In this document: piece after piece, positions 2,972-27,044 of the stretch
Numbering within the stretch: position 1 is the stretch's first letter
Layout of the letters: every line of letters starts with the position of its first letter
Source of the DNA: Candidatus Thorarchaeota archaeon SMTZ1-45
Lineage (GTDB): Archaea > Asgardarchaeota > Thorarchaeia > Thorarchaeales > Thorarchaeaceae
Direction of reading: 5' to 3'
DNA: 64,000 bases
NCBI GenBank assembly: GCA_001563335.1
Contig: LRSL01000076.1
Coordinates: 5,325-69,324 of the forward strand
Program-made: the position numbers and the translations under genes
Notes under the pieces: generated by a model
Told to the model about the DNA's origin: nothing
What the model saw: the letters and a program-made list of their open reading frames with translations, nothing else
The model's database searches: none

Positions 2972-3055
2972 TATTAGCATTTTTAGTCCTAGTTTCGTTT
3001 AGAGTTAATTTCTGAAAGGCATCTAGCAAACCAAACCAGCCACAAGAGTTATATA

Positions 3056-3069
3056 TTAACAATTGTTAA
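3056..3069. promoter_or_regulatory. Copy 1 of the recurrent palindrome TTAACAATTGTTAA (operator-like), overlapping an AT-rich TATA-like stretch upstream of the ABC exporter operon
   Basis: Perfect 14-nt palindrome. The left-extended 17-mer ATATTAACAATTGTTAA is identical to the copy at 19552. It lies about 50 nt upstream of the ATG at 3118. Confidence 0.4.
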
Positions 3070-3117
3070 ACACAACGTGCGTCTTTTTCGCACGATCTGT
3101 TTCTGAGATGATGGACA

Positions 3118-4911
3118 ATGAAAGTGAATGGAAGTTATAAGCATCAAACTGCAACAGAGTATATACTATCAGGTATGCGAAAGCACCCATTTCTTACCCT
3201 GGGTGCATTCGTACTAACTTTCGTTGCCTCTATCTTCACTGCATTGCCTTTTATCATAGTTGGTCAGGCAATCGATCTCCTACGTCTTGAGGGATTTAGT
3301 TCTGGTTTTGTTTCACTAATTTGGATGATAGTCCTCATTGGACTGGTCTATCTTGCATTCAATTTCATTGCAGGGGCTTCATGGGCGGCTGTGATATCTG
3401 GTTGGGAACGTGACGCAAGACAGGAGCTATTCGAATCACTACAGGATCATAGTATGGCTTTTCATGATCAGATTGATAGTAAGAAGCTTCTATCTATCTC
3501 TATGCAGGATATCAACTGGATACGATGGTCTCTGAATCCAGGCCTCCGAATGATAATTGGCTCATTTGCGACATATGGAATCACTGCTTTCATCCTTTGG
3601 AACATCAGTCAAATATTGAGCTTCATTATGATTGCTGGTCTACCAATCTATCTCTATTTCGCAATTCGATACGCTCAGATTGTTGAACCAGTCAGACGTC
3701 TGAGGGCTGAACGGATGGAGGATCTGACATCAGTTTCTCAAGAGGTCTTTAGAGGTATCGAAGTTGTACGGGCATTTGGTTCTGAAGAGGAAGAGAAGCA
3801 GAAGTTCAGTGATACGAGCCTCAGGTATGCTAGTTCAGTCGAGAAGGAAGGTCGTCTGTCAGCATTCTTCTACCCTCAACTGATACTTATTCTTGTTACA
3901 ACTATCTCTTTCCTCTATGGTGCTACCCTCCTTGTTTCAGGGACAATAAGCGTCGGTGATTTAATTCAGATTCTAACTCTACTCCTTGCTGTTGATGCAC
4001 AGAACTTCATGCTCCCAAGAAATCTTCTTTTGATACGAGGTGCATTCGTGAATGCACAAAGAATCATTGACCTTCTAAATTGGCAAGATCCACTTACTGA
4101 GCCCGAGAAATTTGATGGGCAACTCAATCTAGCAGGAGATATAGTATTCGAGGATGTGTCTTTTAGATATCCGAGTGCGAATGGAAATGGTAGCTCTGCC
4201 CTTAGAAACCTCAACTTTATAATACCTGAGGGGTCGAGAGTTGCACTGATTGGTGGACCAGGAGGCGGCAAGAGTTCGGTTCTGAAGTTGCTTCTCCGGT
4301 TCTATGACCCGACTGAAGGTCGAGTGATGATAGGAGGTACTGACTTGCGTGATGTGCCTTCAGAGGTTGTCAGAAACGCAGTTGGACTGGTTGAGCAAGA
4401 TGTGTTTCTCTTCAAGATGTCTATCAGGGATAACATTGCATATGGATGCGAGAATGCCTCAGATGAATCTATAATAAACGCTGCAAAGAGAGCACAGGCG
4501 CATGAATTCATTGTAGAAACTCCCTCTGGATATGATACAGTTATTGGAGAGCGTGGTATGACTCTCTCTGGTGGTCAACGTCAACGCCTTGCTATTGCAC
4601 GTACCCTTCTCCATAATCCTTCAATTCTTCTTCTTGATGATTCCACGAGCGCAATTGATGCACGAACTGAATACCTCATGCGACGCGCCCTCGATGAAGC
4701 TATGGTTGACAGGACAAGCATAACTGTGACTCAGAGGCTTCGTACACTAATCGAGTCTGATCTAATCATGATAGTAGATAAAGGTCAACTAATCGCTTTT
4801 GGTTCTCATAATGAACTCCTGAGGGACTCTCCTCACTACAGACAGATTTTCGAACAACTTCCTGAAACTCGAAAGATGCTTGAAACAGTACCAATCGTAG
4901 GAGGTGTCTGA
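3118..4911 (+). CDS. ABC exporter fused TMD-NBD subunit 1, carrying the degenerate-site motifs
   Basis: Six-TM N-terminal half. Walker A GGPGGGKSS and signature LSGGQRQR. Walker B is LLLDDSTS (Asp in place of the catalytic Glu). The switch region is TVTQRL (Gln in place of His). Confidence 0.9.
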   Translation: MKVNGSYKHQTATEYILSGMRKHPFLTLGAFVLTFVASIFTALPFIIVGQAIDLLRLEGFSSGFVSLIWMIVLIGLVYLAFNFIAGASWAAVISGWERDARQELFESLQDHSMAFHDQIDSKKLLSISMQDINWIRWSLNPGLRMIIGSFATYGITAFILWNISQILSFIMIAGLPIYLYFAIRYAQIVEPVRRLRAERMEDLTSVSQEVFRGIEVVRAFGSEEEEKQKFSDTSLRYASSVEKEGRLSAFFYPQLILILVTTISFLYGATLLVSGTISVGDLIQILTLLLAVDAQNFMLPRNLLLIRGAFVNAQRIIDLLNWQDPLTEPEKFDGQLNLAGDIVFEDVSFRYPSANGNGSSALRNLNFIIPEGSRVALIGGPGGGKSSVLKLLLRFYDPTEGRVMIGGTDLRDVPSEVVRNAVGLVEQDVFLFKMSIRDNIAYGCENASDESIINAAKRAQAHEFIVETPSGYDTVIGERGMTLSGGQRQRLAIARTLLHNPSILLLDDSTSAIDARTEYLMRRALDEAMVDRTSITVTQRLRTLIESDLIMIVDKGQLIAFGSHNELLRDSPHYRQIFEQLPETRKMLETVPIVGGV

Positions 4912-4913
4912 GT

Positions 4914-6764
4914 ATGAGTCATGATGGTCACACTAGATCAGGGAAAAAGAAGCGAAGTCGACCGATTGGACTTTTACTACGACGTATGGGTGGATACTTC
5001 GCAGGTTTTCGGAGGATTATTATCACTGGCGCGATTCTTGCAATTCTCGCTAGTGCAGTCGATGCAATCAGTCCAATTGTATTATCTCAAGGCATAGATG
5101 CAGCACTCGGAACCACAAATGTTGCTAGCCTTATCATTATGCTGACGCTGGCATATCTTGGACTGCGTTTAGCTTCATGGATTGCTGGGTCATTCTACAC
5201 CCGAGTGATAGCAAAGGCTCAAGCTGGGTTTGTCAACAAGATACAGGAAGACACCTATTCACACCTGATTGATGCAGATTTATCATTCCATAAGAGCGAA
5301 CAGAGTGGAAACGTGACTTCCAGAGTGACCTCAGATACTGACGCTTTGAGCTCTGGAATAGAGGTTTTGATGGATATAGCAAGCCAGTTGGTGCTCCTTG
5401 TCTTGACATTCATTGTACTGTGGGTCACATCTCCAGTGGTTGCGATGACCTCATTGATCACAGTCCCCATCGTAGTGGTAATGGCTGCACTTTATGGAAC
5501 AATAGGTCAGCGAACAATGCTAGCTACACAAAGAGCATATGGTATGGTGTCAGGTCAGATTGCTGAAAATCTAAGTGGAATTCAAATTGCAAAGGCATTC
5601 AATCGGGAGCGTGAAACAAATAGTCACCTGCTTGAGTTGAATAACGAATCATACAAGCATAATTTCCGATTGACATTATTCTTCACATTTCTCTTTCCCA
5701 CTGTTGGCGCAATGAGTGTCTTCATTTTGGCTGCGGTCTTGTTTGTTGGGGCTGGTTTAGCCACAGGAACTGCAGCTGTGCTCAGTATTGGAGAGCTCTT
5801 CCTGGGAGTCATTCTAGTTCAGCGTTTTATGTTTCCACTCTTGATAATTAGTCTTCAAGGCGCACAGATTCAGGCATCTCTAGCTGCAATGGATCGGATA
5901 TCCGATGTCATTGATGCTAAGCCTACTCTTATAGAAGCAAGTGATGCAGTCCCTCTTGACTCATCAAGTGATGGTATTACATTCGAGAATGTTACATTCT
6001 CTTATGTTAATGGAACAGACGTGCTCAAAGATGTGAGCTTTAAGATAGAACCTGGATCTACAGTCGCAATCGTTGGTGCTACTGGAGCAGGAAAAACTAC
6101 CATTACCGCATTAATCAATAGATTCTATGACCCTCCAAAAGGCAGAATCCAAATAGGCGAACAAGACATCTCAAAGGTTACTCTTCGTTCTCTTCATGAT
6201 ACTGTAGCTCTTGTTTCTCAGGAACCATACCTGTTCGATGGCACAGTCATGGAGAATATAAAATATAGCAAACCTGATATCAATGATGATGAGATTAAAC
6301 AACTTTGCCATCTGACAAAGGCTTGTGAGTTTATAGAAACCCTACCAGATGCATACGATTCTCGTGTCTTGGAGGGGGGAAAGAATCTTAGCTCAGGTCA
6401 GAGACAAATGATCACAATAGTGAGAACGCTAGTTGCAAATCCAAGAATACTGATTCTAGATGAAGCCACAAGTAGATTGGATGCCTACTCTGAATCACTT
6501 GTTCAAAAAGCTCAGGAGCGGTTGTTCTCAGGAAGAACTACAATTGTAATCGCCCATCGACTCAGCACAATCGCAAATGCAGATAGAATTCTCGTGTTTG
6601 ATAAAGGTAGGTTGGTTGAGCAGGGTACTCATTCAGAACTACTTCAAACAAAGGGAATCTACGAATCGTTGTACAGGACATACTATGCACATCAGGGGAT
6701 TGAGGAGCTAGACGAAAAACTTCTCGAACAAACCGAAGTGATAGTTGAAGTTAAATCTGCATGA
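4914..6764 (+). CDS. ABC exporter fused TMD-NBD subunit 2, carrying the consensus-site motifs
   Basis: Starts 3 nt after the subunit 1 stop. Walker A GATGAGKTT, Walker B LILDEATS, H-loop IAHRLSTI. The signature is deviant (LSSGQRQM). Confidence 0.9.
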   Translation: MSHDGHTRSGKKKRSRPIGLLLRRMGGYFAGFRRIIITGAILAILASAVDAISPIVLSQGIDAALGTTNVASLIIMLTLAYLGLRLASWIAGSFYTRVIAKAQAGFVNKIQEDTYSHLIDADLSFHKSEQSGNVTSRVTSDTDALSSGIEVLMDIASQLVLLVLTFIVLWVTSPVVAMTSLITVPIVVVMAALYGTIGQRTMLATQRAYGMVSGQIAENLSGIQIAKAFNRERETNSHLLELNNESYKHNFRLTLFFTFLFPTVGAMSVFILAAVLFVGAGLATGTAAVLSIGELFLGVILVQRFMFPLLIISLQGAQIQASLAAMDRISDVIDAKPTLIEASDAVPLDSSSDGITFENVTFSYVNGTDVLKDVSFKIEPGSTVAIVGATGAGKTTITALINRFYDPPKGRIQIGEQDISKVTLRSLHDTVALVSQEPYLFDGTVMENIKYSKPDINDDEIKQLCHLTKACEFIETLPDAYDSRVLEGGKNLSSGQRQMITIVRTLVANPRILILDEATSRLDAYSESLVQKAQERLFSGRTTIVIAHRLSTIANADRILVFDKGRLVEQGTHSELLQTKGIYESLYRTYYAHQGIEELDEKLLEQTEVIVEVKSA

Positions 6765-15171: not shown

Positions 15172-15942
15172 ATGAGAAGAGAATTGGGATTGACTGAAAT
15201 GCTACTGACGCCCTTCCAGACTGCTGATAAGATTCATCGAATCATGTGCAAGACAGGGATCCCTACTCTCGACAGTCTACTTGATGGTGGTTTTGAGAGG
15301 GGTCTTGTCTACTTGTTTTATGGTTCTGAGTGTCTTCACACTGACCTTCTAAGAGCTGCTGTACATGCGCAACTTCCTCTTACTAGTGGAGGATTTTCAA
15401 GTCCAACAATCATGATAGATAGTTCGAATGTGGTGGATATGGTAAAGCTAAGGGACCTCTCCTTCCAACTGGGTCTTGAGCCAGAAAGCGTTATGGATAT
15501 GATCTATATCTCACGAGCATTCAACTCAACTCAGACCTATGACCTTGTCATCAATCATCTCGATGAGTTCTTTGAGCGAATACCTGCAAAAATCTTAATC
15601 CTTCCAGGTTTAATTGACCTCTTTATCAACGAAGGTTTGGAGTCTGAACGAACAAGGCAGATGACTCATCTAGCTGCGAGAATCAATGCATTCACTCTAA
15701 GACATAATTTAGTCACTTTGATTTCAACCCGTATCAATAACACTCACAAAAAATATCCTCCAGTTGGAAGGACTCTCGCTAGTTCTGCGCAAGTCCATAT
15801 CCACGTTGATGAAACTCCAATGCGAATTGTTTATTCACTTACAAAACATCCAAGCTTGCCAATACGAAGCGAATCATTACTGAAACTGGGTTCTGCGTTT
15901 GGTACTACACTTCCCCTGGACTACTTCTTCAGTGATAAGTAA
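15172..15942 (+). CDS. RadB/KaiC-like RecA-superfamily protein with degenerate Walker A and B (probable pseudo-ATPase)
   Basis: GIPTLDSLLDGGFERGLVYLFYG aligns with the RadB N-terminus (GvksLDelLgGGfe.Gv.tq.yG). The following P-loop reads SECLHTDL instead of GxxGxGKT. The Walker B position reads KILILPGLID. Confidence 0.65.
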   Translation: MRRELGLTEMLLTPFQTADKIHRIMCKTGIPTLDSLLDGGFERGLVYLFYGSECLHTDLLRAAVHAQLPLTSGGFSSPTIMIDSSNVVDMVKLRDLSFQLGLEPESVMDMIYISRAFNSTQTYDLVINHLDEFFERIPAKILILPGLIDLFINEGLESERTRQMTHLAARINAFTLRHNLVTLISTRINNTHKKYPPVGRTLASSAQVHIHVDETPMRIVYSLTKHPSLPIRSESLLKLGSAFGTTLPLDYFFSDK

Positions 15943-15943
15943 T

Positions 15944-17602
15944 CTACTTGAGTGATTTTCCACACTCTGGACAGAACTTTGAGGTTGCAGTGATTTCTGC
16001 TTTGCATTCAGGACATTTACCAACGAGCTTTGTGTAGAGTGGTTCTAATTTATCACGAACTCCTTCTTTCAACAATTGTCTATTCCAAATGTCATCAATT
16101 CCCTTTTGGAATGATTTGATGGAATTTGGGATCTGAAGCACATTACCAGAGTCGCAAGCCACATGAAATGATGTTTTGAAGGACGCACTGTCCTTCATCT
16201 GCTTGTTCACAGTCTTTCGAACGAAGCTTTCTAGCCTATCATCAAGTGGACGGTGCGTATAAGGTAGACCGAATCGATCCTCTGGCATGATGATTGGTGG
16301 GAATACGATAGGATTTCCTGAGGTATATGTCGCAACCCATGTCTGGATGTTCATTAAAGTTAAAGGTGCTAGACCTTTAATCGAGTCATTTTCAAGTGTG
16401 AGTTTCTGAATGTTCTTAAGCTCAAGTTGTAATGATTTAACACGCTTTTCGACAATTCCATCCATTTTCTCAATTGCATCAATAACTTGCTTCTGAAGGT
16501 TCTTGAACTCAAGCTCCTTTGCATTCTTTTCGTCGTGCAATTCCTCTAACTTTGCTTGAAGGTCTTTGGTTTGAGTATTGACCAATTCTTCTTCTTTATT
16601 GATGTCTTCTTGAAGTTTGGACTCTAGATCTCCAACACGTCCAATAGCTGCGTCAGCAAGATCATTGAGTGAGTCAATGACATCGGTATATGTTGGTACA
16701 GTTACTGAGAGCTCATCGACGAGGACTCTATATCTCTCGATTGCATCTTCAAGTTCAAGCTGACTCAATGCTTCACGTGTGGATTTTATATCCTCTATCA
16801 ATTGGTTAAAGAACCGTTCAAGCTCGACGCTATCTCTAACAAACTCTGCTAAGATGACTCTTCTGTCCTTCTGGAGTTTGTCCTTCAGACTGTATACTTT
16901 CTCAGACATGCGATCCTGAATTTTTTCGATCCGAAGTCGAGATGAGTCCTCATGTGTATTGAGACGTTTTTCCCAACGGCTCATTTCTGCAGCCATTACA
17001 TTTTCCATTACTTTGATTTGGTCGGTGAGTTTTTCTTTGGTAATCTTCTGAAGTCCTTCCATCGTACCAAGCCGCTGACGTGCACCTTCAATCAGATTCT
17101 GAAAGTCTTCGCTGACAGTAAGAGCAAGCTGTGAGTCAATCTTCAAATCCAGCAGGTTAAGTTTCTCGTTTGGATCAACCTCTCTTACACGATTTCCCTG
17201 AGCAACAAAGAGGTTTGGCTCCTGGACATTTCTAATTTGATGGACTTTTGGTACCACATCTCGTAGCAACGGGAGTGCTTTCTCAACTCCTGGAGGAATG
17301 TCCTCGAATCTGGTTATCTCAGTACTTAATATCCGCCGGACAGGTCCAGATGCAGTGTCCTCACTTAGCTCCATCTTTATTGTTGACTCACCAATTGCTG
17401 AGAGAACAATAGAGTTGGTGTCTGATATTTGGACTATCCAAAAAGGTACAGACACAGGTGATAGGAACTTGAGATTTGCTTTCCCTTTCTTGTTTGATTC
17501 GGCTAGAATGAATGCCATTGCAAGGGCTGCTTCATTTGTATCAACTACCAGTTTATTCCCTTTTTCACGAAAGAGATAATCCAACGTAATCTGTCGGACC
17601 AT
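15944..17602 (-). CDS. Coiled-coil protein with globular N- and C-terminal regions and a C-terminal zinc ribbon
   Basis: 552 aa. About 250 central residues are heptad-like and E/K/L/Q-rich. The C-terminus is CPECKAEITATSKFCPECG. Same strand as the two arrestin-fold genes, 84 nt downstream of them. Confidence 0.8.
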   Translation of the reverse strand: MVRQITLDYLFREKGNKLVVDTNEAALAMAFILAESNKKGKANLKFLSPVSVPFWIVQISDTNSIVLSAIGESTIKMELSEDTASGPVRRILSTEITRFEDIPPGVEKALPLLRDVVPKVHQIRNVQEPNLFVAQGNRVREVDPNEKLNLLDLKIDSQLALTVSEDFQNLIEGARQRLGTMEGLQKITKEKLTDQIKVMENVMAAEMSRWEKRLNTHEDSSRLRIEKIQDRMSEKVYSLKDKLQKDRRVILAEFVRDSVELERFFNQLIEDIKSTREALSQLELEDAIERYRVLVDELSVTVPTYTDVIDSLNDLADAAIGRVGDLESKLQEDINKEEELVNTQTKDLQAKLEELHDEKNAKELEFKNLQKQVIDAIEKMDGIVEKRVKSLQLELKNIQKLTLENDSIKGLAPLTLMNIQTWVATYTSGNPIVFPPIIMPEDRFGLPYTHRPLDDRLESFVRKTVNKQMKDSASFKTSFHVACDSGNVLQIPNSIKSFQKGIDDIWNRQLLKEGVRDKLEPLYTKLVGKCPECKAEITATSKFCPECGKSLK

Positions 17603-17686
17603 TAAATCACCCTTTAGATGAAAAGTTGTGAACCTTCAGTCTTTATTTACGTTTGTTGGGTTGCCCCTCACGAGGTTATGTACTAT

Positions 17687-18589
17687 TTACCATTCAAACT
17701 CCATATCCGTGGAGTCAATGCGAAGGTCATCTCTGAGTTTCTCGCCGGAAGTCTGCAATGGAAACTCAACAAACGGATCAATGGACAATCCAACTTCCAA
17801 AACCACCTTTAGAAGCAGTGAAGTCTTGATGAGTTTACCCGCAAAAGGAATCATTGTAAGCCAATCAAAATGTATTGTTTCATCAATCCAACGACCATAA
17901 TCATTCGATGTTAGTGGTATACGTTTCTCAGTGATCCCAATTTTTGAGTCCAATTTATTACCTTTGCAGATAATATCTTCACGACGTAGAATTTCTATTC
18001 GAAGTCCCTTTATTCGAGACCTCTCCATCACTAGATATCGGATTTCAAATCCCCTTTTGGGTCTGAGAATATTTGTAGGAATTTCAACCTGGAGATTGTC
18101 AGTTTCTTTTCCAATTGGTAATGGCTCTGGAACAGGTTCAGGGATGTACTGTGGTAATTTTGATTTTACATTAAGCTGAATCTTTGATTTTGGATCCAAT
18201 GCTCGGTCAATCTCGATGACTGCTTCAATAGTATAGTCAATCTTACCACGAAAGCCTATGTGGACCGGAGGTATGTTTTCGGGAAGCTTGAACTCAAACT
18301 CGAATCGTGTATTCCCTGAGTAAAATTCCCCTCCCTCACAGATTGAAATGTCTTTATGTAGAAACTCATGAGTTTCACTAATATGGACCTTTCCTGCTTG
18401 ATAGTGTGTATATTCCTTTCCTCGAACCTTCAGAATAATTCTATTACATGAAAAATCCTTGTCAGTGGCTATCATGACATGTCCACTGACTAGGTCGCCT
18501 GGAACAAAATTGTCTTTCTCAGTATGGATTGTTACTTCTCTCATGTCTGACTCAGCCAACCAATTATCTCTAATTCTACTCGAGACCAA
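17687..18589 (-). CDS. Arrestin-fold (arrestin N+C / Vps26 / Spo0M-like) protein, paralog B
   Basis: VTIHTEKDNFVPGDLVSGHVMIATDKDFSCNRIILKVRGKE ... FEFEFKLPENIPPVHIGFRGKIDYTIEAVIEID matches the arrestin-N signature (y.pGe.v.G.v.l......i.l.l.G.e...fpF.f.lP...ppSf.g..G.i.Y.l.a.l). A second beta-rich lobe follows a Pro-rich linker. ATG at 18544 (MREVTIH) is the likely start. Confidence 0.7.
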   Translation of the reverse strand: MVSSRIRDNWLAESDMREVTIHTEKDNFVPGDLVSGHVMIATDKDFSCNRIILKVRGKEYTHYQAGKVHISETHEFLHKDISICEGGEFYSGNTRFEFEFKLPENIPPVHIGFRGKIDYTIEAVIEIDRALDPKSKIQLNVKSKLPQYIPEPVPEPLPIGKETDNLQVEIPTNILRPKRGFEIRYLVMERSRIKGLRIEILRREDIICKGNKLDSKIGITEKRIPLTSNDYGRWIDETIHFDWLTMIPFAGKLIKTSLLLKVVLEVGLSIDPFVEFPLQTSGEKLRDDLRIDSTDMEFEW

Positions 18590-18609
18590 ATAGGGTTTTC
18601 TTCCAGTAT

Positions 18610-19539
18610 CTAGATAAAACCAAGATCGAGTTCTATTGACTCAAGAATATCATTAACTGTTTCTTCTGGCTTCTCACCTGAAATTCTAATTTTGAAAGAT
18701 ACATTCGGGTCAAGTTCCCACTTCATCTCAAGAACAACTTTGAGAAAATACGATGTTCTCACGAGCTTTGATTCGAAAGGAACACGCTGCCATCCCTTTC
18801 CCATTATTTCCTCTCTCCAACGATGAAAGTCTCCAGTGGTAAGAGGGATGAACTTCTTTGTTATGACAACGTCATGAGTACCATTTCTACTCCGACACTT
18901 GATGTGTTCTTTTCTCCTTATCTCTAAACGTACTCCATTCACACGTGAATGTTCATCTACCATAAACCGAACTGGAAGACCCTGCTTCATTCTTAGAATA
19001 TCACTTAGTAGCTCAACATGAAGAACATCTAAATCTTTGTTCATTGGATTGTAGCCATCTGCTTCAGGGATATATGCAGGTTGGATTGGCAATACTCTGA
19101 ATCGTCTTGTCATCTTTGGATCAATTGCCCAATCCATCTCCACAACAGCTTCCGCACTATACTCAATGAAACCACCATACCCAGAATAAGTCGGCGGAAG
19201 CTCGTTGTCTAATTTGAACTTGAACGGGAACTCACTCTTACCAATAGGAATCTCAGTTGCTTCACATAGCTCAATCTTCCCTTGAAGATGTATAACATCA
19301 TCAGTTATCCTTGAGTCGCCTGACCCCATCTCGGTTCTTTCCTTACCTTTGAGCTTCAAAATGACTCGGTTACACTCAAACGCTTTGTCAGTTTCCACAA
19401 CAACCACACCGCTTATACAATCCCCTGGTTTGGCATTCCGTTGCGAGAACTTGATGTCGATAAACCTCATTTGATGTTCCAACCACTTTGCAAATCTTCT
19501 CGTGGAAGTAAATATTCTTTTGCAGCGAAAAACGAACAA
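18610..19539 (-). CDS. Arrestin-fold (arrestin N+C / Vps26 / Spo0M-like) protein, paralog A
   Basis: MRFIDIKFSQRNAKPGDCISGVVVVETDKAFECNRVILKLKGKE ... FPFKFKLDNELPPTYSGYGGFIEYSAEAVVEMD is collinear with paralog B. The likely start is ATG 19470; the TTG start at 19539 adds 23 residues with no counterpart in B. Confidence 0.7.
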   Translation of the reverse strand: MFVFRCKRIFTSTRRFAKWLEHQMRFIDIKFSQRNAKPGDCISGVVVVETDKAFECNRVILKLKGKERTEMGSGDSRITDDVIHLQGKIELCEATEIPIGKSEFPFKFKLDNELPPTYSGYGGFIEYSAEAVVEMDWAIDPKMTRRFRVLPIQPAYIPEADGYNPMNKDLDVLHVELLSDILRMKQGLPVRFMVDEHSRVNGVRLEIRRKEHIKCRSRNGTHDVVITKKFIPLTTGDFHRWREEIMGKGWQRVPFESKLVRTSYFLKVVLEMKWELDPNVSFKIRISGEKPEETVNDILESIELDLGFI

Positions 19540-19551
19540 AGCAGAAAATTA

Positions 19552-19571
19552 ATATTAACAATTGTTAATAT
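19552..19571. promoter_or_regulatory. Copy 4 (longest) of the recurrent palindrome: ATATTAACAATTGTTAATAT
   Basis: 20-nt perfect palindrome in the divergent region between the arrestin operon (start 19470/19539, minus) and the membrane protein gene. It ends 9 nt before the ATG at 19580. Confidence 0.45.
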
Positions 19572-19579
19572 CCTTCAAC

Positions 19580-20614
19580 ATGAGCCGACTAATTTTTGGA
19601 CTTACGATATTTCTCACATTGTTCCTTGTGATACCTCCAATTGCAGCCCATGTACCAATTTCTACGCAAGATGGTGAAACATTGGAAACTGCGTTCTTCA
19701 TCGAAGACCCTACAAAGAGCTGGGTGATCTATTCTGATTTACATAAAGGTGCAGAGCCTCGATATTTTGGATTTGAGATGGATGTCGGAGAAAGAATCAG
19801 AATATTGCTCTCAATTCCTATCATTACAGATCCAAATGCGTTTCAACCCTCTATCGCATTAATGGGTCCTGGTTTCACAAATTCAAGTTCAATTCCTGCA
19901 TTTCTAGAAGTTCCAGAATCTGCTGGTGTAATGATTTTCGAAAGTGAACCAGCAACTCCTGAGTACGAAGGATTCACACCTACGAGTTTCTATGCACTTA
20001 TTGATATCGACATGGAAGTCGTAGTATCTGGTGACTATTATTTTGCTGTCTTTGAAGAAGATGAAAGCGGTCCATTTTCTGTTGCTCTCGGTTATGTGGA
20101 ATCCTTTACCTTCGATGAATGGCTACTTGTGCCATTTGATGTGATGATAATCCATCAGTGGAATGGTCAGAGCTTGGTATTGATACTTGCTCCAATGATC
20201 ATAAGTGTCCTGCTAGGTATAGGCTATCTCTTAAGCAGAAGGCGTGATTTATTGGAATTAGAAAGCACGGTTTCATGGCTAGGTGTCCTTGGAGGATTGC
20301 TATTCTTTGGTAGTGGAATAACCATTTTCTATCAGATGATAGTTGCCTCGTTAACAGCGATAAATGCCCAACTCATAATCACTGCAATCTTCGGTATTAT
20401 TCCAATTCTATTGGGATTCTACACATTGAGAATTGTTTTAACTGATGGTTGGAAAAAGCAACGTGGTAAACGAATCCGCCTCTTAATTTTGGGTATAGTT
20501 GCCCCATTCCTATGGTCAGGTCTATTGATTGGACCTGCTTTAGTTATTCTTAGTGGAATTGTAGCATCAGTTGGAGCTTCAGAGACCTATGAGAGAAGGT
20601 ATGCTCCTCATTAG
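19580..20614 (+). CDS. Secreted/membrane-anchored protein: signal peptide, ~190-aa extracytoplasmic domain, 4-5 C-terminal TM helices
   Basis: MSRLIFGLTIFLTLFLVIPPIAA|HVPIS is a signal-peptide-like N-terminus. The C-terminal half is strongly hydrophobic. The track ORF starts at TTG 19562, inside the palindrome, so ATG 19580 is preferred. Confidence 0.7.
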   Translation: MSRLIFGLTIFLTLFLVIPPIAAHVPISTQDGETLETAFFIEDPTKSWVIYSDLHKGAEPRYFGFEMDVGERIRILLSIPIITDPNAFQPSIALMGPGFTNSSSIPAFLEVPESAGVMIFESEPATPEYEGFTPTSFYALIDIDMEVVVSGDYYFAVFEEDESGPFSVALGYVESFTFDEWLLVPFDVMIIHQWNGQSLVLILAPMIISVLLGIGYLLSRRRDLLELESTVSWLGVLGGLLFFGSGITIFYQMIVASLTAINAQLIITAIFGIIPILLGFYTLRIVLTDGWKKQRGKRIRLLILGIVAPFLWSGLLIGPALVILSGIVASVGASETYERRYAPH

Positions 20615-22029: not shown

Positions 22030-22116
22030 CACGGAGCGATATCGAGGCGTGGCAGGTACCGTAAAGGTTACTTACAGTCAGGTGTGTGCAGACCTGAATG
22101 GTCGAGGTCAAAACAG

Positions 22117-24099
22117 ATGAGTGATTTCAAACTGGAGGCTCCGTTCAAACCCACTGGCGATCAACCTCAAGCTATACAAAAACTAGTGGAGGGTCTCGAG
22201 AGCGGACTCCAACATCAAACTCTTCTCGGAGTCACTGGATCTGGCAAGACATTCACCATGGCAAACGTCATTGAAGCATATAATATGCCCACACTCGTCA
22301 TTTCCCACAACAAGACCCTAGCTGCTCAATTGACCTCAGAATACAAACAATTCTTTCCTGATGCAGGAGTAGAGTACTTCGTCAGTTACTATGATTACTA
22401 CCAGCCTGAGGCCTATGTTCCCAGTAAGGACATGTACATAGAGAAGGAAACAGACATCAATCAGGAGATTGAGAGACTTCGCCATTCAGCAACTCATTCT
22501 TTGAGGTCTCGAAAAGATACTATTGTCGTGGCCTCAGTTTCCTGTATCTATGGTGTAGGAAACCCGAGTGAGTATGATTATTTCAGGATGTTTCTAGAGC
22601 GAGGAAACCAGATAGACCGGCGAGAGATCCTAGAACGCTTAGTGGCTATGCAATATGAGCGAAATGATATGGAGATCAAACCTGGTATTTTTCGGGTTCG
22701 TGGTGATGTGATTGATGTCTACCCTGCAGGCTCAGAGAATAGCATTAGAATTGAATTAGATGGAGATCGAGTTGATCGGCTCACTGTTTTGGAAGGACTG
22801 TCAGCTAAAAGACTGTATGAACCTAATTGGATTGAGTTGTTCCCAGCTAAACATCACATCGCGCAACATGAAACTATCATAAAAGCCCTTGAGCCAATTG
22901 AACAGGAGATGCAAGAACGTGTTGAGTGGTTCAAGAAACAGGGTAAGCTTGTGGAGGCTGACCGACTCAAGAGACGAACCATGTACGACATTGAGATGCT
23001 CAGAGAGATAGGGATGTGTTCGGGAATCGAGAACTATTCCCGATATATTGATGGACGTGTTGAGGGTGAGAAACCATACACCCTTCTTGATTACTTTCCT
23101 GATGACTTTCTGATGATTATTGATGAGAGCCATATGACGATCCCTCAGATTCGAGGTATGTTCAATGGTGACTTATCTCGAAAACAGAACTTGGTCGATT
23201 ATGGCTTCAGACTACCTTCTGCAATTGATAACAGACCACTGAAATTCCATGAATTCGAGAAGTACATGAAACATGTCATATACACAAGTGCAACTCCTGG
23301 TCCATATGAGAGTAGGAAGAGTCAACAGATTGTGGAACAGCTTCTCCGGCCTACAGGACTTCTTGATCCTGCAATCACAGTAAGACCAGTTGTGGGACAA
23401 GTGGACCACCTGCTAGGTGAGATCAACAAGACTGTTGATATGGGTGACCGTGTCCTTGTCACAACACTCACAAAGAAGACCTCTGAGATGTTGAGTGAGT
23501 ACCTTGTCGAGGCAGGAGTTAAGGCAAGATATCTACACTCAGATATCGGAACAGTCGAACGAATCGAGATAATACGTCAATTACGTCAAGGTAAGTTTGA
23601 TGTTCTCGTGGGAATCAATCTCCTACGGGAGGGATTGGATCTTCCTGAAGTGGGTCTTGTAGCAATTTTAGATGCAGACAAGGAAGGATTCCTTAGGACT
23701 GACTGGGCTCTCATTCAAACAATGGGCCGTGCTGCTCGGAATGTGAATGGCCGGGTCATCTTGTATGGGGACCATGTTTCAACAGCGATGCAGACAGCTA
23801 TTGACGAAACCAATCGTAGACGGGTATATCAGCTTCAGTATAATGAGGAGCATGGCATCGAACCTGAGTCGATAGTCAAGTCGATTCGGGATATAGCTGA
23901 AGGAATTAAGACGCCAGAGAAGACCACCCAGACGAGGCTTGATGACTTTGATCCATTCGAGGTCGATGAGTTAGCTGATTACATCATTGATCTTGAAGAG
24001 CAGATGAAGGAGGCTGCAAGAAATCTGGAGTTTGAAAAAGCCGCAAAACTTCGGGATCAGATTGCAGGTCTCCGAAAGAGAATCGAGGGAATGGAATAG
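22117..24099 (+). CDS. uvrB: Excinuclease ABC subunit B
   Basis: FKPTGDQPQAI, GVTGSGKTFT (Walker A), the beta-hairpin region YYDYYQPEAY, DESH, and the C-terminal UVR motif (FEKAAKLRDQI). ATG 22117 is preceded by GAGGT; the track ORF starts 33 nt earlier. Confidence 0.95.
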   Translation: MSDFKLEAPFKPTGDQPQAIQKLVEGLESGLQHQTLLGVTGSGKTFTMANVIEAYNMPTLVISHNKTLAAQLTSEYKQFFPDAGVEYFVSYYDYYQPEAYVPSKDMYIEKETDINQEIERLRHSATHSLRSRKDTIVVASVSCIYGVGNPSEYDYFRMFLERGNQIDRREILERLVAMQYERNDMEIKPGIFRVRGDVIDVYPAGSENSIRIELDGDRVDRLTVLEGLSAKRLYEPNWIELFPAKHHIAQHETIIKALEPIEQEMQERVEWFKKQGKLVEADRLKRRTMYDIEMLREIGMCSGIENYSRYIDGRVEGEKPYTLLDYFPDDFLMIIDESHMTIPQIRGMFNGDLSRKQNLVDYGFRLPSAIDNRPLKFHEFEKYMKHVIYTSATPGPYESRKSQQIVEQLLRPTGLLDPAITVRPVVGQVDHLLGEINKTVDMGDRVLVTTLTKKTSEMLSEYLVEAGVKARYLHSDIGTVERIEIIRQLRQGKFDVLVGINLLREGLDLPEVGLVAILDADKEGFLRTDWALIQTMGRAARNVNGRVILYGDHVSTAMQTAIDETNRRRVYQLQYNEEHGIEPESIVKSIRDIAEGIKTPEKTTQTRLDDFDPFEVDELADYIIDLEEQMKEAARNLEFEKAAKLRDQIAGLRKRIEGME

Positions 24100-27044
24100 T
24101 GAATTCAGCAGCAGATAAGAACAATGGAGCCATTGATACTGAGGTAGATGGCCCTAGGTCTATCATTGTTATGGGTGCTGCTGAGCATAATCTGAAGCAT
24201 ATTGATGTCACAATTCCAAAGAACACACTCACTGTTGTCACCGGATTATCGGGATCTGGAAAGAGTTCACTTGTCTTTGATACGATCTACAGTGAGGGGC
24301 AGAGAAGGTTCGTGGAGTCTCTCTCTCCTTACGCACGTCAATTTCTGGGGATGCTTGAGAAACCCAAAGTTGATCTTATGACAGGTCTTTCACCGTCAAT
24401 CTCTATTGACCAGAAGAGCGTGAGTAGGAATCCTAGATCGAGTGTTGGAACAATCACAGAAATCTATGATTATCTTCGGCTCCTATATGCCAGGGTGGGA
24501 GAACCCCATTGTCCTCAGTGTAAGAAGAAAATAGAACCCCAGACATCTCAACAGATAGTTGACCGTATTCTAAATCTCAAGGAAGGTTCGCGTATCATAA
24601 TTCTAGCCCCCATCGTGAGAGGTAGAAAGGGAGAATATAGGAAAGAGTTTCGAGACCTCATCAAGAAGGGTTTTGTACGAGCTCGTGTCGATGGAAAGCT
24701 TACCGAACTTGAAGAGGGAATGTCACTCGACAGATACTTTGAGCACACCATTGAGGTCGTCATCGATAGAATCGCAGTGAAGGAGTCTGAACGAGGTCGC
24801 ATCTCAGAGGCTGTAGAGACCGCCCTTAACATGGCTGACAGGGTTGTCACGATTATAACACCTGAAGGAGATATCACACTTTCAGAGCAATTCGCTTGTG
24901 TAGAATGCGGCATTAGCCTTCCTGAGATGGAACCGCGTATTTTCAGTTGGAATACTCCCCAGGGCGCCTGCCCTCACTGTACTGGAATTGGTGTCATTCG
25001 TGAGTTCGATCCTGACTTATTCATCACAAACTCGGACCGTTCACTAAACAACGGTCTTTTCGAGCTGGATCAGTGGAAGATAAGACGTGTCTTTACCAAT
25101 AAGGTCGTGCAAAAGTATGGGTTTACCATGGACACCCCCTGGAAAGACATGACAAAGAAGCAGAAAGACCTCCTTCTCCATGGGTCTGGTAGCAGAAAGT
25201 TTGAGGCTACATGGGAGGGTGACAATCCAGAATTTGAGGTCCAATATAAGGGAACCTTCCAGAGACCCTTTGAGGGATGGATAGAACGCGCAAAGCGGCT
25301 CTACAAGACAACTAAATCGGACTATGGAAGACGTATCCTAGAGAAGTATATGTCGACGCAAACATGCCCTGTTTGCTTGGGTGGACGATTGAGACCTGAA
25401 TCAAAAGCTGTCACTTTTAATGATAAATCCATCACAGAGATTAACAATCTCTCAATCAAGGCTCTACGTGAGTTCTTCGAGAATGCTAAGATTGATCCGA
25501 GGCTCAAACCAGTAGCAGAACCCATTCTTCGCGAGATTATGGGACGTATTGGGTTCCTAGAGGACGTAGGGCTTGAGTACCTCACTCTCGATAGGTCTGC
25601 TCCCAGCTTGGCTGGTGGTGAAGCACAGAGAATTCGATTGGCTAGTCAAATTGGGTCGAATCTTGTTGGTGTGACCTATGTGTGTGACGAACCATCAATT
25701 GGTTTACACAGTCGCGACAATATACGACTCCTGAAGTCTTTGCTACGACTTAGAAACCTCGGAAACAATGTCCTCGTTGTGGAACATGATGAAGAAACTA
25801 TACGCACAGCAGACTATATCATCGATTTAGGACCAGGCGCAGGCTCAGAGGGGGGTGAGGTTGTAGTCACTGGAACTCTTGATGATGTTCTGAAATCGAA
25901 GAAGTCTATCACTGCGAGATACCTTAGAGGTGAAGAGAAGATACCCGTGCCTGAGCATCGAAGGCAACTGAATGGGCGGTTCATTGAGTTAAGAGGCTGC
26001 AAGCATAACAACCTCAAGAATCTGAATATTCGAATACCACTCGGGATGTTTATCGCAACAACTGGAGTTTCAGGGTCCGGCAAATCTTCCTTGATTGTGG
26101 AAACATTGCAGCGAGAACTTGCTCGACGATTCCACAATGCTGAAGCTAAGCCTGGCAAGTTTGATGAGATTCTAGGCATTGAACAATTGGACAAAGTCAT
26201 TGTCATTGATCAGAGTCCCATTGGAAGAACCCCGCGCTCTAACCCTGCCACCTACGTAGGTCTATGGTCTCCGTTAAGAGACCTATTTTCAAATCTTCCT
26301 GAATCTCTAATACGCGGATACAAACCAGGTCGATTCAGTTTCAATGTAAAAGGTGGCCGCTGTGAAACCTGCAAAGGTGCAGGTGTAGAAGTCATTGAGA
26401 TGCAGTTCTTGCCGCCAGTTCAGGTAACGTGCAGTGAGTGCAAAGGACGGCGTTACAACAGAGAAACTCTTCAAGTGCGATTCAAGGGAAAGAACATTGC
26501 TGATATTCTCGATATGCGAATCGATGAGGCTGTAAAGTTCTTCGAGGGTATTCCCTCAGTACATCGCAGGCTTGAGACCCTATGCGAGGTAGGCATGGGT
26601 TATGTAAAATTGGGACAACCCGCAACTACTCTATCAGGTGGTGAAGCCCAGCGTATCAAACTGAGCAAGTTCCTCTCAAGACCTGCAACAGGGCAGACAC
26701 TAATTCTGCTGGACGAACCCACAACAGGTTTGCACTTTGCAGACATCAAGAAGCTGTTAGAGGTTCTGCACCGGCTTGTGGATCTTGGAAACACAGTTCT
26801 CGTTATTGAACATCAATTGGATGTTGTAAAAACCGCGGATTGGATCATTGATCTTGGACCAGAGGGCGGAGATGATGGTGGTTATCTCGTTGCAGAAGGG
26901 ACTCCTGAAGATATTGTTTCATGTGATAGGTCCTATACTGGTCAATACCTCCGAGGATTACTAAAACCTGTGATTCCAAACAAAGTGTCCTCTATTAAAC
27001 AACCAGCGCCTCCAATTACTAACGAGGGGAGGTCTAAGAAATGA
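24099..27044 (+). CDS. uvrA: Excinuclease ABC subunit A (full-length, class I-like), copy 1
   Basis: Two complete ABC modules: GLSGSGKSS/LSGGEAQRIRLA/DEPSIGLH and GVSGSGKSS/LSGGEAQRIKL/LDEPTTGLH. All Zn modules are present (CPQC, CVECG..CPHC, CPVC, CETC..CSEC). The GTG start shares 1 nt with the uvrB stop. Confidence 0.95.
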   Translation: MNSAADKNNGAIDTEVDGPRSIIVMGAAEHNLKHIDVTIPKNTLTVVTGLSGSGKSSLVFDTIYSEGQRRFVESLSPYARQFLGMLEKPKVDLMTGLSPSISIDQKSVSRNPRSSVGTITEIYDYLRLLYARVGEPHCPQCKKKIEPQTSQQIVDRILNLKEGSRIIILAPIVRGRKGEYRKEFRDLIKKGFVRARVDGKLTELEEGMSLDRYFEHTIEVVIDRIAVKESERGRISEAVETALNMADRVVTIITPEGDITLSEQFACVECGISLPEMEPRIFSWNTPQGACPHCTGIGVIREFDPDLFITNSDRSLNNGLFELDQWKIRRVFTNKVVQKYGFTMDTPWKDMTKKQKDLLLHGSGSRKFEATWEGDNPEFEVQYKGTFQRPFEGWIERAKRLYKTTKSDYGRRILEKYMSTQTCPVCLGGRLRPESKAVTFNDKSITEINNLSIKALREFFENAKIDPRLKPVAEPILREIMGRIGFLEDVGLEYLTLDRSAPSLAGGEAQRIRLASQIGSNLVGVTYVCDEPSIGLHSRDNIRLLKSLLRLRNLGNNVLVVEHDEETIRTADYIIDLGPGAGSEGGEVVVTGTLDDVLKSKKSITARYLRGEEKIPVPEHRRQLNGRFIELRGCKHNNLKNLNIRIPLGMFIATTGVSGSGKSSLIVETLQRELARRFHNAEAKPGKFDEILGIEQLDKVIVIDQSPIGRTPRSNPATYVGLWSPLRDLFSNLPESLIRGYKPGRFSFNVKGGRCETCKGAGVEVIEMQFLPPVQVTCSECKGRRYNRETLQVRFKGKNIADILDMRIDEAVKFFEGIPSVHRRLETLCEVGMGYVKLGQPATTLSGGEAQRIKLSKFLSRPATGQTLILLDEPTTGLHFADIKKLLEVLHRLVDLGNTVLVIEHQLDVVKTADWIIDLGPEGGDDGGYLVAEGTPEDIVSCDRSYTGQYLRGLLKPVIPNKVSSIKQPAPPITNEGRSKK

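Follow-up and report, generated by a model that had tools for sequence, protein, structure and literature searches.

Arrestin-fold proteins of Asgard archaea have been catalogued before. They were named as eukaryotic signature proteins (ESPs; Zaremba-Niedzwiedzka 2017, cited in 10.1101/2021.04.02.438162), and the ESP table of Eme et al. 2023 (PMC10307638) lists thorarchaeal sequences of the two types described below, ArrA (FECNRV) and ArrB (YTHYQAGK), as Arrestin_N PF00339, including the ortholog from one of our comparison loci (L011). Because the exact family already stands in that table, we rejected the idea that ArrA and ArrB are novel arrestins. These works catalogue the domain only: in their searched text we found no description of the tandem duplication, of the C-terminal tail conserved in both proteins or of the coiled-coil zinc-ribbon (CC-Zn) family reported here, and the searched parts of their supplementary material contain neither of the CC motifs PFWIVQ and PYWIVQ. 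Other described relatives include Spo0M, recognised as the branch of the arrestin clan in bacteria and archaea (Alvarez 2008, PMC2515105), and VPS26C of the retriever–CCC assembly, in which an arrestin-fold subunit works with coiled-coil scaffolds in endosomal sorting (PMC13392464). By the criteria of the latter study, CCDC22, CCDC93 and VPS26C have no prokaryotic homologs.

We analysed a 64,000-nt stretch of DNA (the window) from a Thorarchaeota (Asgard) chromosome; all homologs that we found are proteins of Thorarchaeota or Asgard metagenome-assembled genomes (MAGs). On balance, and with moderate confidence, we explain the locus as duplicates of a catalogued thorarchaeal arrestin next to a separate coiled-coil protein of an apparently Asgard-only family and with a presumed scaffold role, neighbours that have promoter-like boxes of their own.

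Two arrestin paralogs

The initial annotation placed two arrestin-type paralogs and a coiled-coil zinc-ribbon protein on one strand. All three open reading frames are present on the minus strand, and a fourth gene diverges from them:

ArrA, 19470..18610, minus strand: 286 aa, predicted two-lobe arrestin-fold protein; start ATG (MRFIDIK)
ArrB, 18544..17687, minus strand: 285 aa, predicted two-lobe arrestin-fold protein, ArrA paralog
CC-Zn, 17602..15944, minus strand: 552-aa soluble coiled-coil zinc-ribbon protein
Multi-TM protein, 19580..20614, plus strand: 344 aa, signal peptide and hydrophobic segments; divergent from ArrA

The position previously given as the ArrA start, 19539, is an upstream TTG; the ATG lies at 19470. 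Spacers of 65 nt (ArrA–ArrB) and 84 nt (ArrB–CC-Zn) separate the genes, the second exactly as first reported. The multi-TM protein has no match in Pfam, and of the loci compared only the window and L004 have its gene at this position, which makes it a neighbour rather than a conserved part of the locus.

ArrA and ArrB share 42% identity across 269 aa (E 8e-72), and both score above the Arrestin_N (PF00339) gathering score of 24.9 bits (ArrA, 66.1 bits, E 4.6e-18; ArrB, 54.3 bits, E 1.9e-14). An AF2 model of ArrB (pLDDT 89.5, pTM 0.80) superposed on full-length Vps26 over both lobes, with a TM score of 0.73–0.74 across roughly 300 aligned columns (E 1e-17). Foldseek matches of this model comprised Vps26, ARRD-6, VPS26C, TXNIP and beta-arrestins (E 1e-17 to 1e-12), and a PDB profile search returned VPS26C as the top match (1.1e-8), with ARRDC3 and TXNIP also found. 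The C-lobe of ArrB is identified from the structure model because Pfam gives no match there: the Arrestin_C (PF02752) match of ArrB (39.6 bits) sits on the N-lobe, at residues 4–122. The C-lobe of ArrA (166–264) reaches 20.2 bits, below the Arrestin_C cut-off of 27.7 bits, and we infer its two-lobe architecture from the 42% identity to ArrB, which extends over both lobes. Together, profile and structure searches support the two-lobe arrestin-type fold first proposed for the pair and predict that ArrA and ArrB are soluble proteins nearest to Vps26 and alpha-arrestins.

The resemblance to these families has limits. Vps26 and VPS26C, the cargo-selective subunits of retromer and retriever, are of similar length (about 290 aa) and are the top structural matches over both lobes, but they share only 16–19% identity with ArrB. 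The Vps26 profile (PF03643, cut-off 27 bits) scores 20.2 bits on ArrB and does not match ArrA, and no Vps35- or Vps29-like gene occurs among the scanned neighbours of the arrestin locus. Alpha-arrestins (ARTs) such as ARRDC3, TXNIP and Caenorhabditis elegans ARRD-6 share the Arrestin_N/C fold (TM 0.74 for ARRD-6). The PPxY and LPxY motifs of alpha-arrestins recruit the WW domains of Nedd4/Rsp5. Whereas these proteins carry long, PY-bearing tails, ArrA and ArrB have a short acidic-aromatic tail and no conserved PPxY or LPxY. It could also be argued that ArrA and ArrB belong to the prokaryotic arrestin-like proteins of the Spo0M type and act in stress or the cell cycle, with no relation to trafficking of the eukaryotic kind, given that Spo0M is an established prokaryotic branch of the clan (PMC2515105), that NCBI names the orthologs 'sporulation protein' and that PF07070 scores (22.0 and 21.4 bits) fall just below the 23-bit cut-off. 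In every search, nevertheless, Spo0M came behind Arrestin_N and Vps26: the Arrestin_N profile gives much higher scores (54–66 bits), the Spo0M structure 5cl2 reached E 0.056 in the PDB profile search as against 1e-8 for VPS26C, and Spo0M is absent from the best 50 Foldseek matches. We therefore regard this reading as highly improbable.

The YIPE core noted earlier in the linker between the lobes is near-invariant among orthologs, where conservation is limited to P-x-[YF]-[IL]-P-[ED]. The window's LPQY, which had been read as an LPxY-type PY motif, does not hold up as one: LPxY is not conserved, LPxY and PPxY occur sporadically in orthologs, and in the ArrB model the segment forms an ordered part of the linker (pLDDT 81–95). 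LPQY is peculiar to the window's ortholog. The C-terminal tail of about 15 aa has the consensus [DE][ILV][FL][DE]x[ILM]xx[DE][LF]G[WFL]; in ArrA it reads DILESIELDLGFI. Its pLDDT is below 50, yet it is conserved across the ArrA, ArrB and single-arrestin clades. We take its xIE[LM]D[LF]G[WF] pattern to bear only a loose likeness to the LIELD clathrin box.

Orthologs of ArrA (n=36) were found in Thorarchaeota MAGs at 61–83% identity. ArrB evolves faster than the other two: relative to the orthologs in L001 it is 59% identical, as against 74% for ArrA and 84% for CC-Zn. A clade of loci with a single arrestin, 31–44% identical to the window's ArrA and ArrB, is the sister of ArrA plus ArrB in a neighbour-joining (NJ) tree, and both paralogs persist as distinct lines of orthologs. 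The paralogy first noted is confirmed, and by this tree the pair arose through tandem duplication of one ancestral arrestin gene within Thorarchaeia.

An Asgard coiled-coil family

The AF2 model of CC-Zn (pLDDT 90.8), with Pfam for the ribbon, divides the protein as follows:

Residues 1–150: alpha/beta head (AF2 model)
Residues 157–279 and 284–399: helices of an antiparallel coiled-coil hairpin (AF2 model)
Residues 400–527: beta-plus-four-helix globular tail (AF2 model)
Residues 529–551: zinc ribbon (AF2 model and Pfam)

The hairpin is about 120 residues long and joins the N- and C-terminal globular parts. The CPEC-x10-CPEC ribbon (C530-x2-C533-x10-C544-x2-C547) matches Zn_Ribbon_1 (PF13240) over residues 529–551 with 25.6 bits against a cut-off of 25. 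Head, coiled coil, second globular region and ribbon are therefore all as first described. Neither head nor tail has a match in Pfam, NCBIfam, PADLOC or the PDB. Homologs of CC-Zn (n=113), nearly all exactly 552 aa long, carry no annotation, and homolog searches found the family only in Asgard archaea; its distant members belong to Ranarchaeia, Helarchaeota, Hermodarchaeota and 'Promethearchaeota'. The ribbon is present in 14 of the 16 members examined. By these comparisons, CC-Zn represents an apparently Asgard-only, previously undescribed family whose thorarchaeal members usually have a zinc ribbon at the C terminus.

Like SMC and Rad50, CC-Zn connects its terminal globular parts through a long intramolecular coiled coil of antiparallel helices, and Foldseek returned only coiled-coil or SMC-like matches (SMC, Rad50 and MukB arms, phage SMC-like proteins). 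CC-Zn might accordingly act on the chromosome or in DNA repair, as a rod of the SMC/Rad50 kind that bears a zinc ribbon and has nothing to do with the arrestins, its relevant neighbours being UvrABC and RadB. The surroundings would suit such a role: a Rad51-fold gene adjoins CC-Zn tail to tail, UvrB, two UvrA genes and UvrC lie within 18 kb, UvrB is still close to CC in L022 (41% identity), and in L008 the gene divergent to CC encodes an XPB-type helicase. The protein itself argues otherwise. The Foldseek matches have TM scores of at most 0.3 on the query and reflect the coiled coil only; no SMC_N or ABC_tran match was found in any of 16 members, and the family alignment has no conserved Walker-type P-loop (GxxxxGK[ST]). 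CC-Zn is only 552 aa long, lacks ABC ATPase head, hinge and zinc hook, carries its ribbon at the C terminus next to the head, unlike SMC/Rad50, and is acidic overall (pI 5.5); two family members have no ribbon, and other homologs are fused to a longin domain or encoded behind gelsolin and Roadblock genes, as set out next. We consider a chromosome or DNA-repair role very unlikely.

In some Asgard lineages, CC homologs carry a longin domain as a fused extension (hhalign probability 99.5%, E 1.9e-22, 490 columns); the extension matches Clat_adaptor_s (25.5 bits, cut-off 22.5) as well as Longin and Fuz_longin_1. In the paralog clade, CC lies behind a gene with a gelsolin domain (PDB 7c2f_B, 3.3e-13) and a Roadblock/LC7 gene (2.7e-10), and in another clade behind a leucine-rich repeat (LRR) gene. 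Each association is confined to one narrow lineage, and together they suggest a trafficking or cytoskeletal scaffold role for the family. The likeness to retriever–CCC (VPS26C plus CCDC22/CCDC93, in Commander), which also combines an arrestin-fold subunit with long coiled-coil scaffolds, is a functional analogy only: we detected no homology between CC-Zn and CCDC22/93, and neither was among the Foldseek matches.

Gene order and promoter-like boxes

An arrestin gene lies directly upstream of CC-Zn, co-oriented with it, in 19 of the 24 loci of clade A, one thorarchaeal subclade, and this adjacency spans CC-Zn identities of 65–84% and arrestin identities of 31–44% (the single-arrestin clade compared with the window's ArrA and ArrB). 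The triad is syntenic in L001, L010, L012, L013, L014, L063 and L065. At least five breaks of the adjacency have occurred: L004, L066, L068 and L074 lack CC-Zn at this position, and CC has no upstream arrestin in L015. ArrA is absent from L004 and L011. Flanks of the other CC clades (about 35 loci) contain no arrestin, except in L007, a very distant Thor genome with an arrestin about 3 kb from a 27%-identical CC homolog. The triad thus has the conserved neighbourhood predicted for related genomes, but within one subclade and with repeated breaks. The triad subclade preserves the whole UvrB-HisPhos-...-RadB block as well, so the adjacency may be inherited gene order, and a functional tie between CC-Zn and the arrestins is a plausible hypothesis.

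The upstream regions contain the following elements:

BRE/TATA-like box of ArrA, 19508..19524, minus strand: GCAAAAGAATATTTAC, −54..−38; conserved in L001, L012, L013 and L014, where the flanks diverge
BRE/TATA-like box of ArrB, 18586..18604, minus strand: GGAAGAAAACCCTATTTGG, −60..−42, within the 65-nt ArrA–ArrB spacer
Promoter-like box of CC-Zn, 17639..17667, minus strand: GGGGCAACCCAACAAACGTAAATAAAGAC, −65..−37
Shine-Dalgarno site of CC-Zn, 17613..17606, minus strand: AGGGTGAT, downstream of the CC-Zn box
TGGTTGG in the ArrA leader, 19479..19485, minus strand: −15..−9
TGGTTGG in the ArrB leader, 18556..18562, minus strand: −18..−12
Palindrome of 20 nt, 19552-19571, no strand: ATATTAACAATTGTTAATAT, exact; 9–28 nt upstream of the divergent membrane-protein ATG (19580)

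A promoter role for the boxes is suggested by their conservation and by the archaeal BRE/TATA consensus. The ArrB box is near-identical in eight orthologous loci, two of which, L004 and L011, have no ArrA; the CC-Zn box is conserved in 13 loci, including the single-arrestin clade and L015. The initial annotation spoke of an operon. Because each gene has its own conserved box, and that of CC persists in L015 without an arrestin, ArrA, ArrB and CC-Zn are probably three transcription units instead. No clear terminator was seen between them, so read-through co-transcription may occur. TGGTTGG does precede both ATGs, and the orthologs of ArrA and of ArrB conserve GTGGTYGG; in the ArrA leader it is possibly a degenerate Shine-Dalgarno site. 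The palindrome reported in the divergent promoter is real and exact (chance expectation 0; a copy with 17/20 matches lies at 3053-3072), but it is absent from all related loci compared, being unique to the window's genome, and is not part of a conserved arrestin promoter.

These observations bear on whether the three proteins form a physical module. Vps26 dimerises in membrane-bound retromer, and by analogy an ArrA–ArrB heterodimer could dock on a CC-Zn scaffold, perhaps via the C-terminal tails, as one co-regulated adaptor-scaffold unit. The 19/24 adjacency over a wide identity range and the proximity in L007 (within 3.3 kb) would fit a tighter functional module than our preferred explanation assumes; the retention of both arrestin lines and the pairing of CC relatives with other adaptor-type modules (longin fusion, Roadblock, LRR) are consistent with it too. 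Against it stand the three separate boxes, that of CC retained without an arrestin in L015, the conservation of the UvrB...RadB block in the same genomes, the lack of flanking arrestins in the other CC clades outside L007, and the arrestin tail motif, which is kept in L004, L066, L068 and L074 where CC-Zn is missing from the site. Direct arrestin–CC-Zn contact is possible, and the module as a whole seems to us a tentative reading, distinctly less probable than independent neighbours.

Proposed adaptor and scaffold roles

Beyond the identity, fold, duplication history and gene-order statistics described above, our preferred explanation of neighbouring but separate genes draws adaptor and scaffold roles from homology and neighbourhood. 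The arrestins would act as adaptors whose beta-sandwich lobes bind client or partner proteins at the membrane, a role that the basic C-lobe of ArrA (charge +8) would fit, and the disordered acidic-aromatic tail may be a peptide for docking or for self-inhibition. In the same trafficking- or cytoskeleton-type network, CC-Zn would act as an elongated tether or scaffold, a proposal based on relatives that are fused to longin or encoded directly behind Roadblock/LC7 and gelsolin or LRR genes.

A broader and, in our view, unlikely extension would make the CC family the hub of an Asgard-specific adaptor-scaffold system, an elongated, non-ATPase coiled-coil tether whose head and tail recruit interchangeable adaptors of eukaryotic type and on which ArrA and ArrB dock via their tails. 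The interchangeable modules would be arrestins here, the fused longin in other Asgard lineages and, elsewhere in Thorarchaeia, either Roadblock/LC7 with gelsolin or LRR proteins. If so, the system would represent a forerunner in prokaryotes, or an analogue, of sorting assemblies that combine arrestin-fold and coiled-coil proteins, for example retromer–SNX and retriever–CCC.

Fold and family membership of the arrestin pair

Three open reading frames lie in the same orientation on the minus strand between positions 15944 and 19539, with spacers of 65 nt (ArrA–ArrB) and 84 nt (ArrB–CC-Zn):

19470..18610, minus strand: ArrA, arrestin-fold paralog, 286 aa counted from the ATG used by orthologs
18544..17687, minus strand: ArrB, arrestin-fold paralog, 285 aa
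17602..15944, minus strand: CC-Zn, coiled-coil zinc-ribbon protein, 552 aa

No hydrophobic segment was found in any of the three proteins, and all of their homologs came from Thorarchaeota or other Asgard MAGs. The initial annotation had proposed that the arrestin pair and the coiled-coil protein form an adaptor or scaffold module; the sequence features that it listed (TGGTTGG, YIPE, CPEC-x10-CPEC and a 20-nt palindrome) were each found as described. ArrA and ArrB are paralogs, with 42% identity over 269 residues (E 8e-72). Both matched Pfam Arrestin_N several-fold over the gathering score of 24.9 bits (ArrA, 66.1 bits; ArrB, 54.3 bits), and their matches below threshold, to Spo0M, Vps26, Rgp1 and LDB19, were all to arrestin-clan families. 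The family-specific thresholds of Vps26 (20.2 bits versus 27) and Spo0M (22 versus 23) were missed, and the Arrestin_C match of ArrB fell on the N-lobe. An AF2 model of ArrB built from 47 sequences was all-beta with two lobes (pLDDT 89.5, pTM 0.80). Foldseek comparison of this model with the PDB placed Vps26 at the top (6h7w_C, E 1.1e-17), with a TM of 0.74 over ~300 columns to Vps26B (2r51) and of 0.74 to the alpha-arrestin ARRD-6; VPS26C and TXNIP also matched, as did beta-arrestins at about 1e-12. PDB sequence profile searches returned VPS26C (1.1e-8), ARRD (5.8e-7), ARRDC3 and TXNIP, with Spo0M only at 0.056. Because of these structural and profile matches, we assign ArrA and ArrB to the arrestin clan.

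Arrestin-fold eukaryotic signature proteins (ESPs) serve the argument that Asgard archaea had membrane-trafficking elements, and we know of none in Asgard archaea with a known partner or function. As cited in one preprint (10.1101/2021.04.02.438162), Asgard arrestin-domain proteins have been listed as ESPs since 2017, and they appear as such in another (10.1101/2025.11.06.686947). Eme et al. 2023 (PMC10307638) include in their supplementary ESP table at least 13 sequences bearing YTHYQAGK, the signature of ArrB, and at least 13 bearing FECNRV, that of ArrA, labelled Arrestin_N PF00339, Thorarchaeota. One entry there, Thor AB_25 (MEHG01000042:1072-1926), is the ArrB ortholog of the related locus L011. 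The arrestins are not an undescribed family; since this table already lists ArrA- and ArrB-type sequences, the arrestin half of the finding is a re-discovery.

Two short segments of the arrestins stood out in the ortholog comparison. The inter-lobe linker keeps P-x-[YF]-[IL]-P-[ED] and was modelled with high confidence in ArrB. The LPQY of the window had been read as a PY motif of the LPxY type; its leucine is not conserved, PPxY and LPxY occur only sporadically among orthologs, and we rejected the motif as a defining feature. We read the linker as structural. The last ~15 residues come out as disordered when modelled (pLDDT below 50), yet ArrA, ArrB and the single arrestins of related loci share a tail of the form [DE][ILV][FL][DE]x[ILM]xx[DE][LF]G[WFL]. 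The C-terminus of ArrB (17687-17740) is the most degenerate copy, DDLRIDSTDMEFEW versus the consensus DDLFDSIEMDLGW present in all orthologs. The net charge of ArrA is +8 in the C-lobe and -6 in the tail. Such conservation in a disordered tail is characteristic of a short linear motif, which would serve docking or self-inhibition.

Gene order and predicted promoters

The arrestins of the loci compared, 37 in all, were placed in an NJ tree. Single arrestins, which are 38-44% identical to ArrA and 31-39% to ArrB, formed a clade sister to the ArrA and ArrB clades together; the tandem duplication therefore occurred inside Thorarchaeia. ArrA was secondarily lost from the related loci L004, L011 and L064. 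Of the two paralogs, ArrB evolves fast, and CC-Zn shows the conservation of a housekeeping protein; identities to the orthologs in the related locus L001 are 59% for ArrB, 74% for ArrA, 84% for CC-Zn, 85% for the RadB-like protein and 87% for UvrB.

We examined synteny in CC-centred loci, one genome per species, and in arrestin-centred metagenome loci, scored by tblastn. In clade A, the thorarchaeal subclade whose CC-Zn is at least 65% identical to that of the window, 24 loci had both sides visible. An arrestin lay directly upstream of CC-Zn and co-oriented with it in 19 of these 24 (8 tandem pairs, 2 ArrB only and 9 single arrestins). Four loci lacked CC, so that the convergent RadB-like gene came next after the arrestin gene or genes (L004, L066, L068 and L074), and in one, HisPhos adjoined CC with no arrestin (L015). 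The same genomes keep the whole block from UvrB through a 151-aa protein and HisPhos to RadB-like, isomerase-like and TPR genes, so the conservation of the arrestin–CC adjacency is no greater than that of its surroundings. In the flanks of other CC clades we found no arrestin, with the sole exception of L007, the most distant Thor homolog (CC identity 27%); there, 3.3 kb from CC, the opposite strand encodes an arrestin (26-28%) next to a Ras-like GTPase. In that locus (L007:2081-8668) the arrestin is divergent to the Ras/Roc small GTPase, and an OST3/OST6-like thioredoxin gene lies directly upstream of CC. In the other clades the gene immediately upstream of CC varies: it encodes an LRR protein at 41-52% CC identity and a phosphoribosyltransferase at ~34%; in the ~30% paralog clade, a gelsolin-domain gene is followed by Roadblock/LC7 and a small gene of unknown function. 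The proposed synteny of the triad stands for part of clade A and is broken in the five loci named. An arrestin-scaffold module is a reasonable hypothesis, which we consider possible and on balance rather doubtful.

Elsewhere the window has the content of an ordinary chromosome, with genes for MetRS, a pair each of ABC exporters and UvrA proteins, UvrB, UvrC, permeases and TPR proteins; no tRNA and no Rfam match turned up anywhere in the window. The UvrA paralogs are full-length (981 and 952 aa) and tandem (24099-27044 and 27041-29899, plus strand, 4-nt overlap), directly preceded by UvrB (22084-24099); UvrC lies at 33511-35322. Tail to tail with CC-Zn, 1 nt from its stop, is a Rad51/RadB-fold gene (15172-15942, plus strand) whose position is kept in most clade-A loci. 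The Walker A site of its product reads YGSECLHTD, without the GK[ST] lysine, and the protein resembles a RadA paralog whose ATPase is dead.

When the 100 nt upstream of each gene were aligned by eye across loci, an A/T-rich box 40-65 nt ahead of every ATG proved to be conserved, within a spacer that otherwise diverges.

Conserved A/T-rich boxes upstream of the three genes
ArrA box: TGCAAAAGAATATTTGT, conserved upstream
ArrB box: GGAAGAAAACCCTATTT, retained in L004 and L011, both without ArrA
CC-Zn box: GGACAACCCAACAAACGTAATTAAAGAC, retained in L015, without any arrestin, and in the single-arrestin clade

The archaeal BRE/TATA rule is the basis for calling such boxes promoters, and by this rule they are three predicted promoters. 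Given the three promoter-like boxes, we regard ArrA, ArrB and CC-Zn as three probable transcription units, with read-through possible, in place of the single operon first suggested: each gene has its own box, and that of CC-Zn persists where the arrestins are missing. A good Shine-Dalgarno site (AGGTGRT) is present at CC-Zn as well; the arrestin genes have GTGGTYGG in common, and this accounts for the TGGTTGG noticed upstream of both.

The exact 20-nt palindrome ATATTAACAATTGTTAATAT (19552-19571; zero matches expected by chance) lies 9-28 nt upstream of the ATG (19580) of a divergent membrane-protein gene. It was absent from all related loci, including the close relative L004. Being unique to the genome of the window and sited at the membrane-protein start, it has no conserved role as an arrestin operator. 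The ABC-exporter pair 3118..6764 is preceded, at a distance of 46-65 nt, by a 17/20 copy with the core ATATTAACAATTGTTAA (3053-3072), and the palindrome may be a shared operator of a small membrane-protein regulon. The divergent gene (19580-20614, plus strand) encodes a protein of 344 aa, secreted or multi-TM, that matched no family. Only the window and L004 (L004:4642-5673) carry it between HisPhos and the arrestins, and L014 has other genes inserted at the same spot. The block is otherwise conserved, and this spot within it is a site of variable insertions.

The CC-Zn family and its associations

CC-Zn has 113 homologs, all thorarchaeal and nearly all exactly 552 aa. The AF2 model (64 sequences, pLDDT 90.8) bore out the architecture read from the sequence, a head, a coiled coil, a second globular part and a zinc ribbon, and a rod of about 18 nm is predicted.

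Parts of CC-Zn in the AF2 model
Residues 1-150: a/b head
Helices 157-279 and 284-399: antiparallel hairpin, ~120 residues each arm
Residues 400-527: beta-plus-four-helix tail
Following the tail: zinc ribbon

Many invariant residues fall in the coiled coil itself. Beyond the ribbon, CC-Zn had no match in Pfam, NCBIfam, PADLOC or PDB sequence profiles, and PDB profile searches with the head and the tail were empty. Foldseek of the whole model (PDB, BFVD) was dominated by the coiled coil and uninformative on the globular parts; every match was a coiled-coil or SMC/Rad50-like rod, with a TM on the query no higher than 0.3. Several identities were considered and rejected. An SMC-type ATPase was dismissed for lack of ATPase motifs. 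An origin of head and tail from one another by internal duplication (hhalign probability 0.4%) and a defence system (weak ZorA coiled-coil noise only in PADLOC, E 0.005; nothing in NCBIfam) were also discarded. A longin/roadblock head, suggested by the strand-helix order bbb-a-bbb-aa, may still apply; hhalign of the head profile with the longin extension of fused homologs gave no match (probability 0.1%).

Profile searching of 1.84 billion representative proteins yielded 33 below 1e-30 and full-length relatives to about 1e-10. Distant relatives came from Ranarchaeia, Helarchaeota and 'Promethearchaeota' MAGs, and one locus is labelled Hermodarchaeota (L041). The family has no annotation, and all the members found are from Asgard archaea; in many Thor genomes there are two paralogs of about 30% mutual identity. 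Neither the family nor a locus combining arrestin and coiled-coil genes was described in any paper that we found, which, with incomplete literature coverage, is absence of evidence only.

Four homologs of 680-701 aa from 'Promethearchaeota' MAGs (proteins P0246, P0278, P0268 and P0294; loci L077-L080) can be aligned to the Thor family from the head through to the tail (hhalign probability 99.5%, E 1.9e-22, 490 columns) and lack the zinc ribbon. Their ~125 extra N-terminal residues score as a longin domain, matching Clat_adaptor_s at 25.5 bits (cut-off 22.5), with Longin and Fuz_longin_1 matches in two of the four; their gene contexts were uninformative. Five loci (L035, L042, L043, L047 and L054) hold a conserved run in which a gelsolin-domain protein containing a Pro-rich linker (PDB 7c2f_B, E 3.3e-13) comes first, followed by Roadblock/LC7 (E 2.7e-10), a 136-aa unknown and, at the end, the ~30% CC-Zn paralog (for example, L042:6126-9668). 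In Helarchaeota (L058, L059 and L060), CC belongs to a conserved cluster of unknowns: it follows an 803-aa protein encoded divergently and precedes a 351-aa coiled-coil protein, proteins of 190, 113 and 108 aa and a radical SAM protein, with an Arf/Ras-like GTPase 3 kb upstream in L058 and L059.

The company of the family thus comprises a longin fusion and Roadblock/LC7, gelsolin-domain, LRR and arrestin neighbours, every one a kind of module that eukaryote-like systems for trafficking, GTPase platforms and the cytoskeleton typically use. These associations point in that direction and are suggestive, not conclusive, because each is confined to one narrow lineage. The alternative is that CC-Zn is a DNA-related rod, for which the SMC-like outline and the UvrABC/RadB/XPB neighbours speak, and nothing beyond these.

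The most useful new items are the conserved arrestin tail peptide, which is directly testable as a docking motif, and the unannotated CC family, including its relatives with a longin fusion or a Roadblock/gelsolin linkage. This Asgard-only, well-conserved family, with its high-confidence model, is a candidate arrestin partner, and the locus offers a dated tandem duplication that led to two stable paralog lines. If the arrestins and CC-Zn do not bind, the locus would be an ordinary conserved gene order with catalogued ESPs; if they do, it would provide a first handle on archaeal arrestin function.
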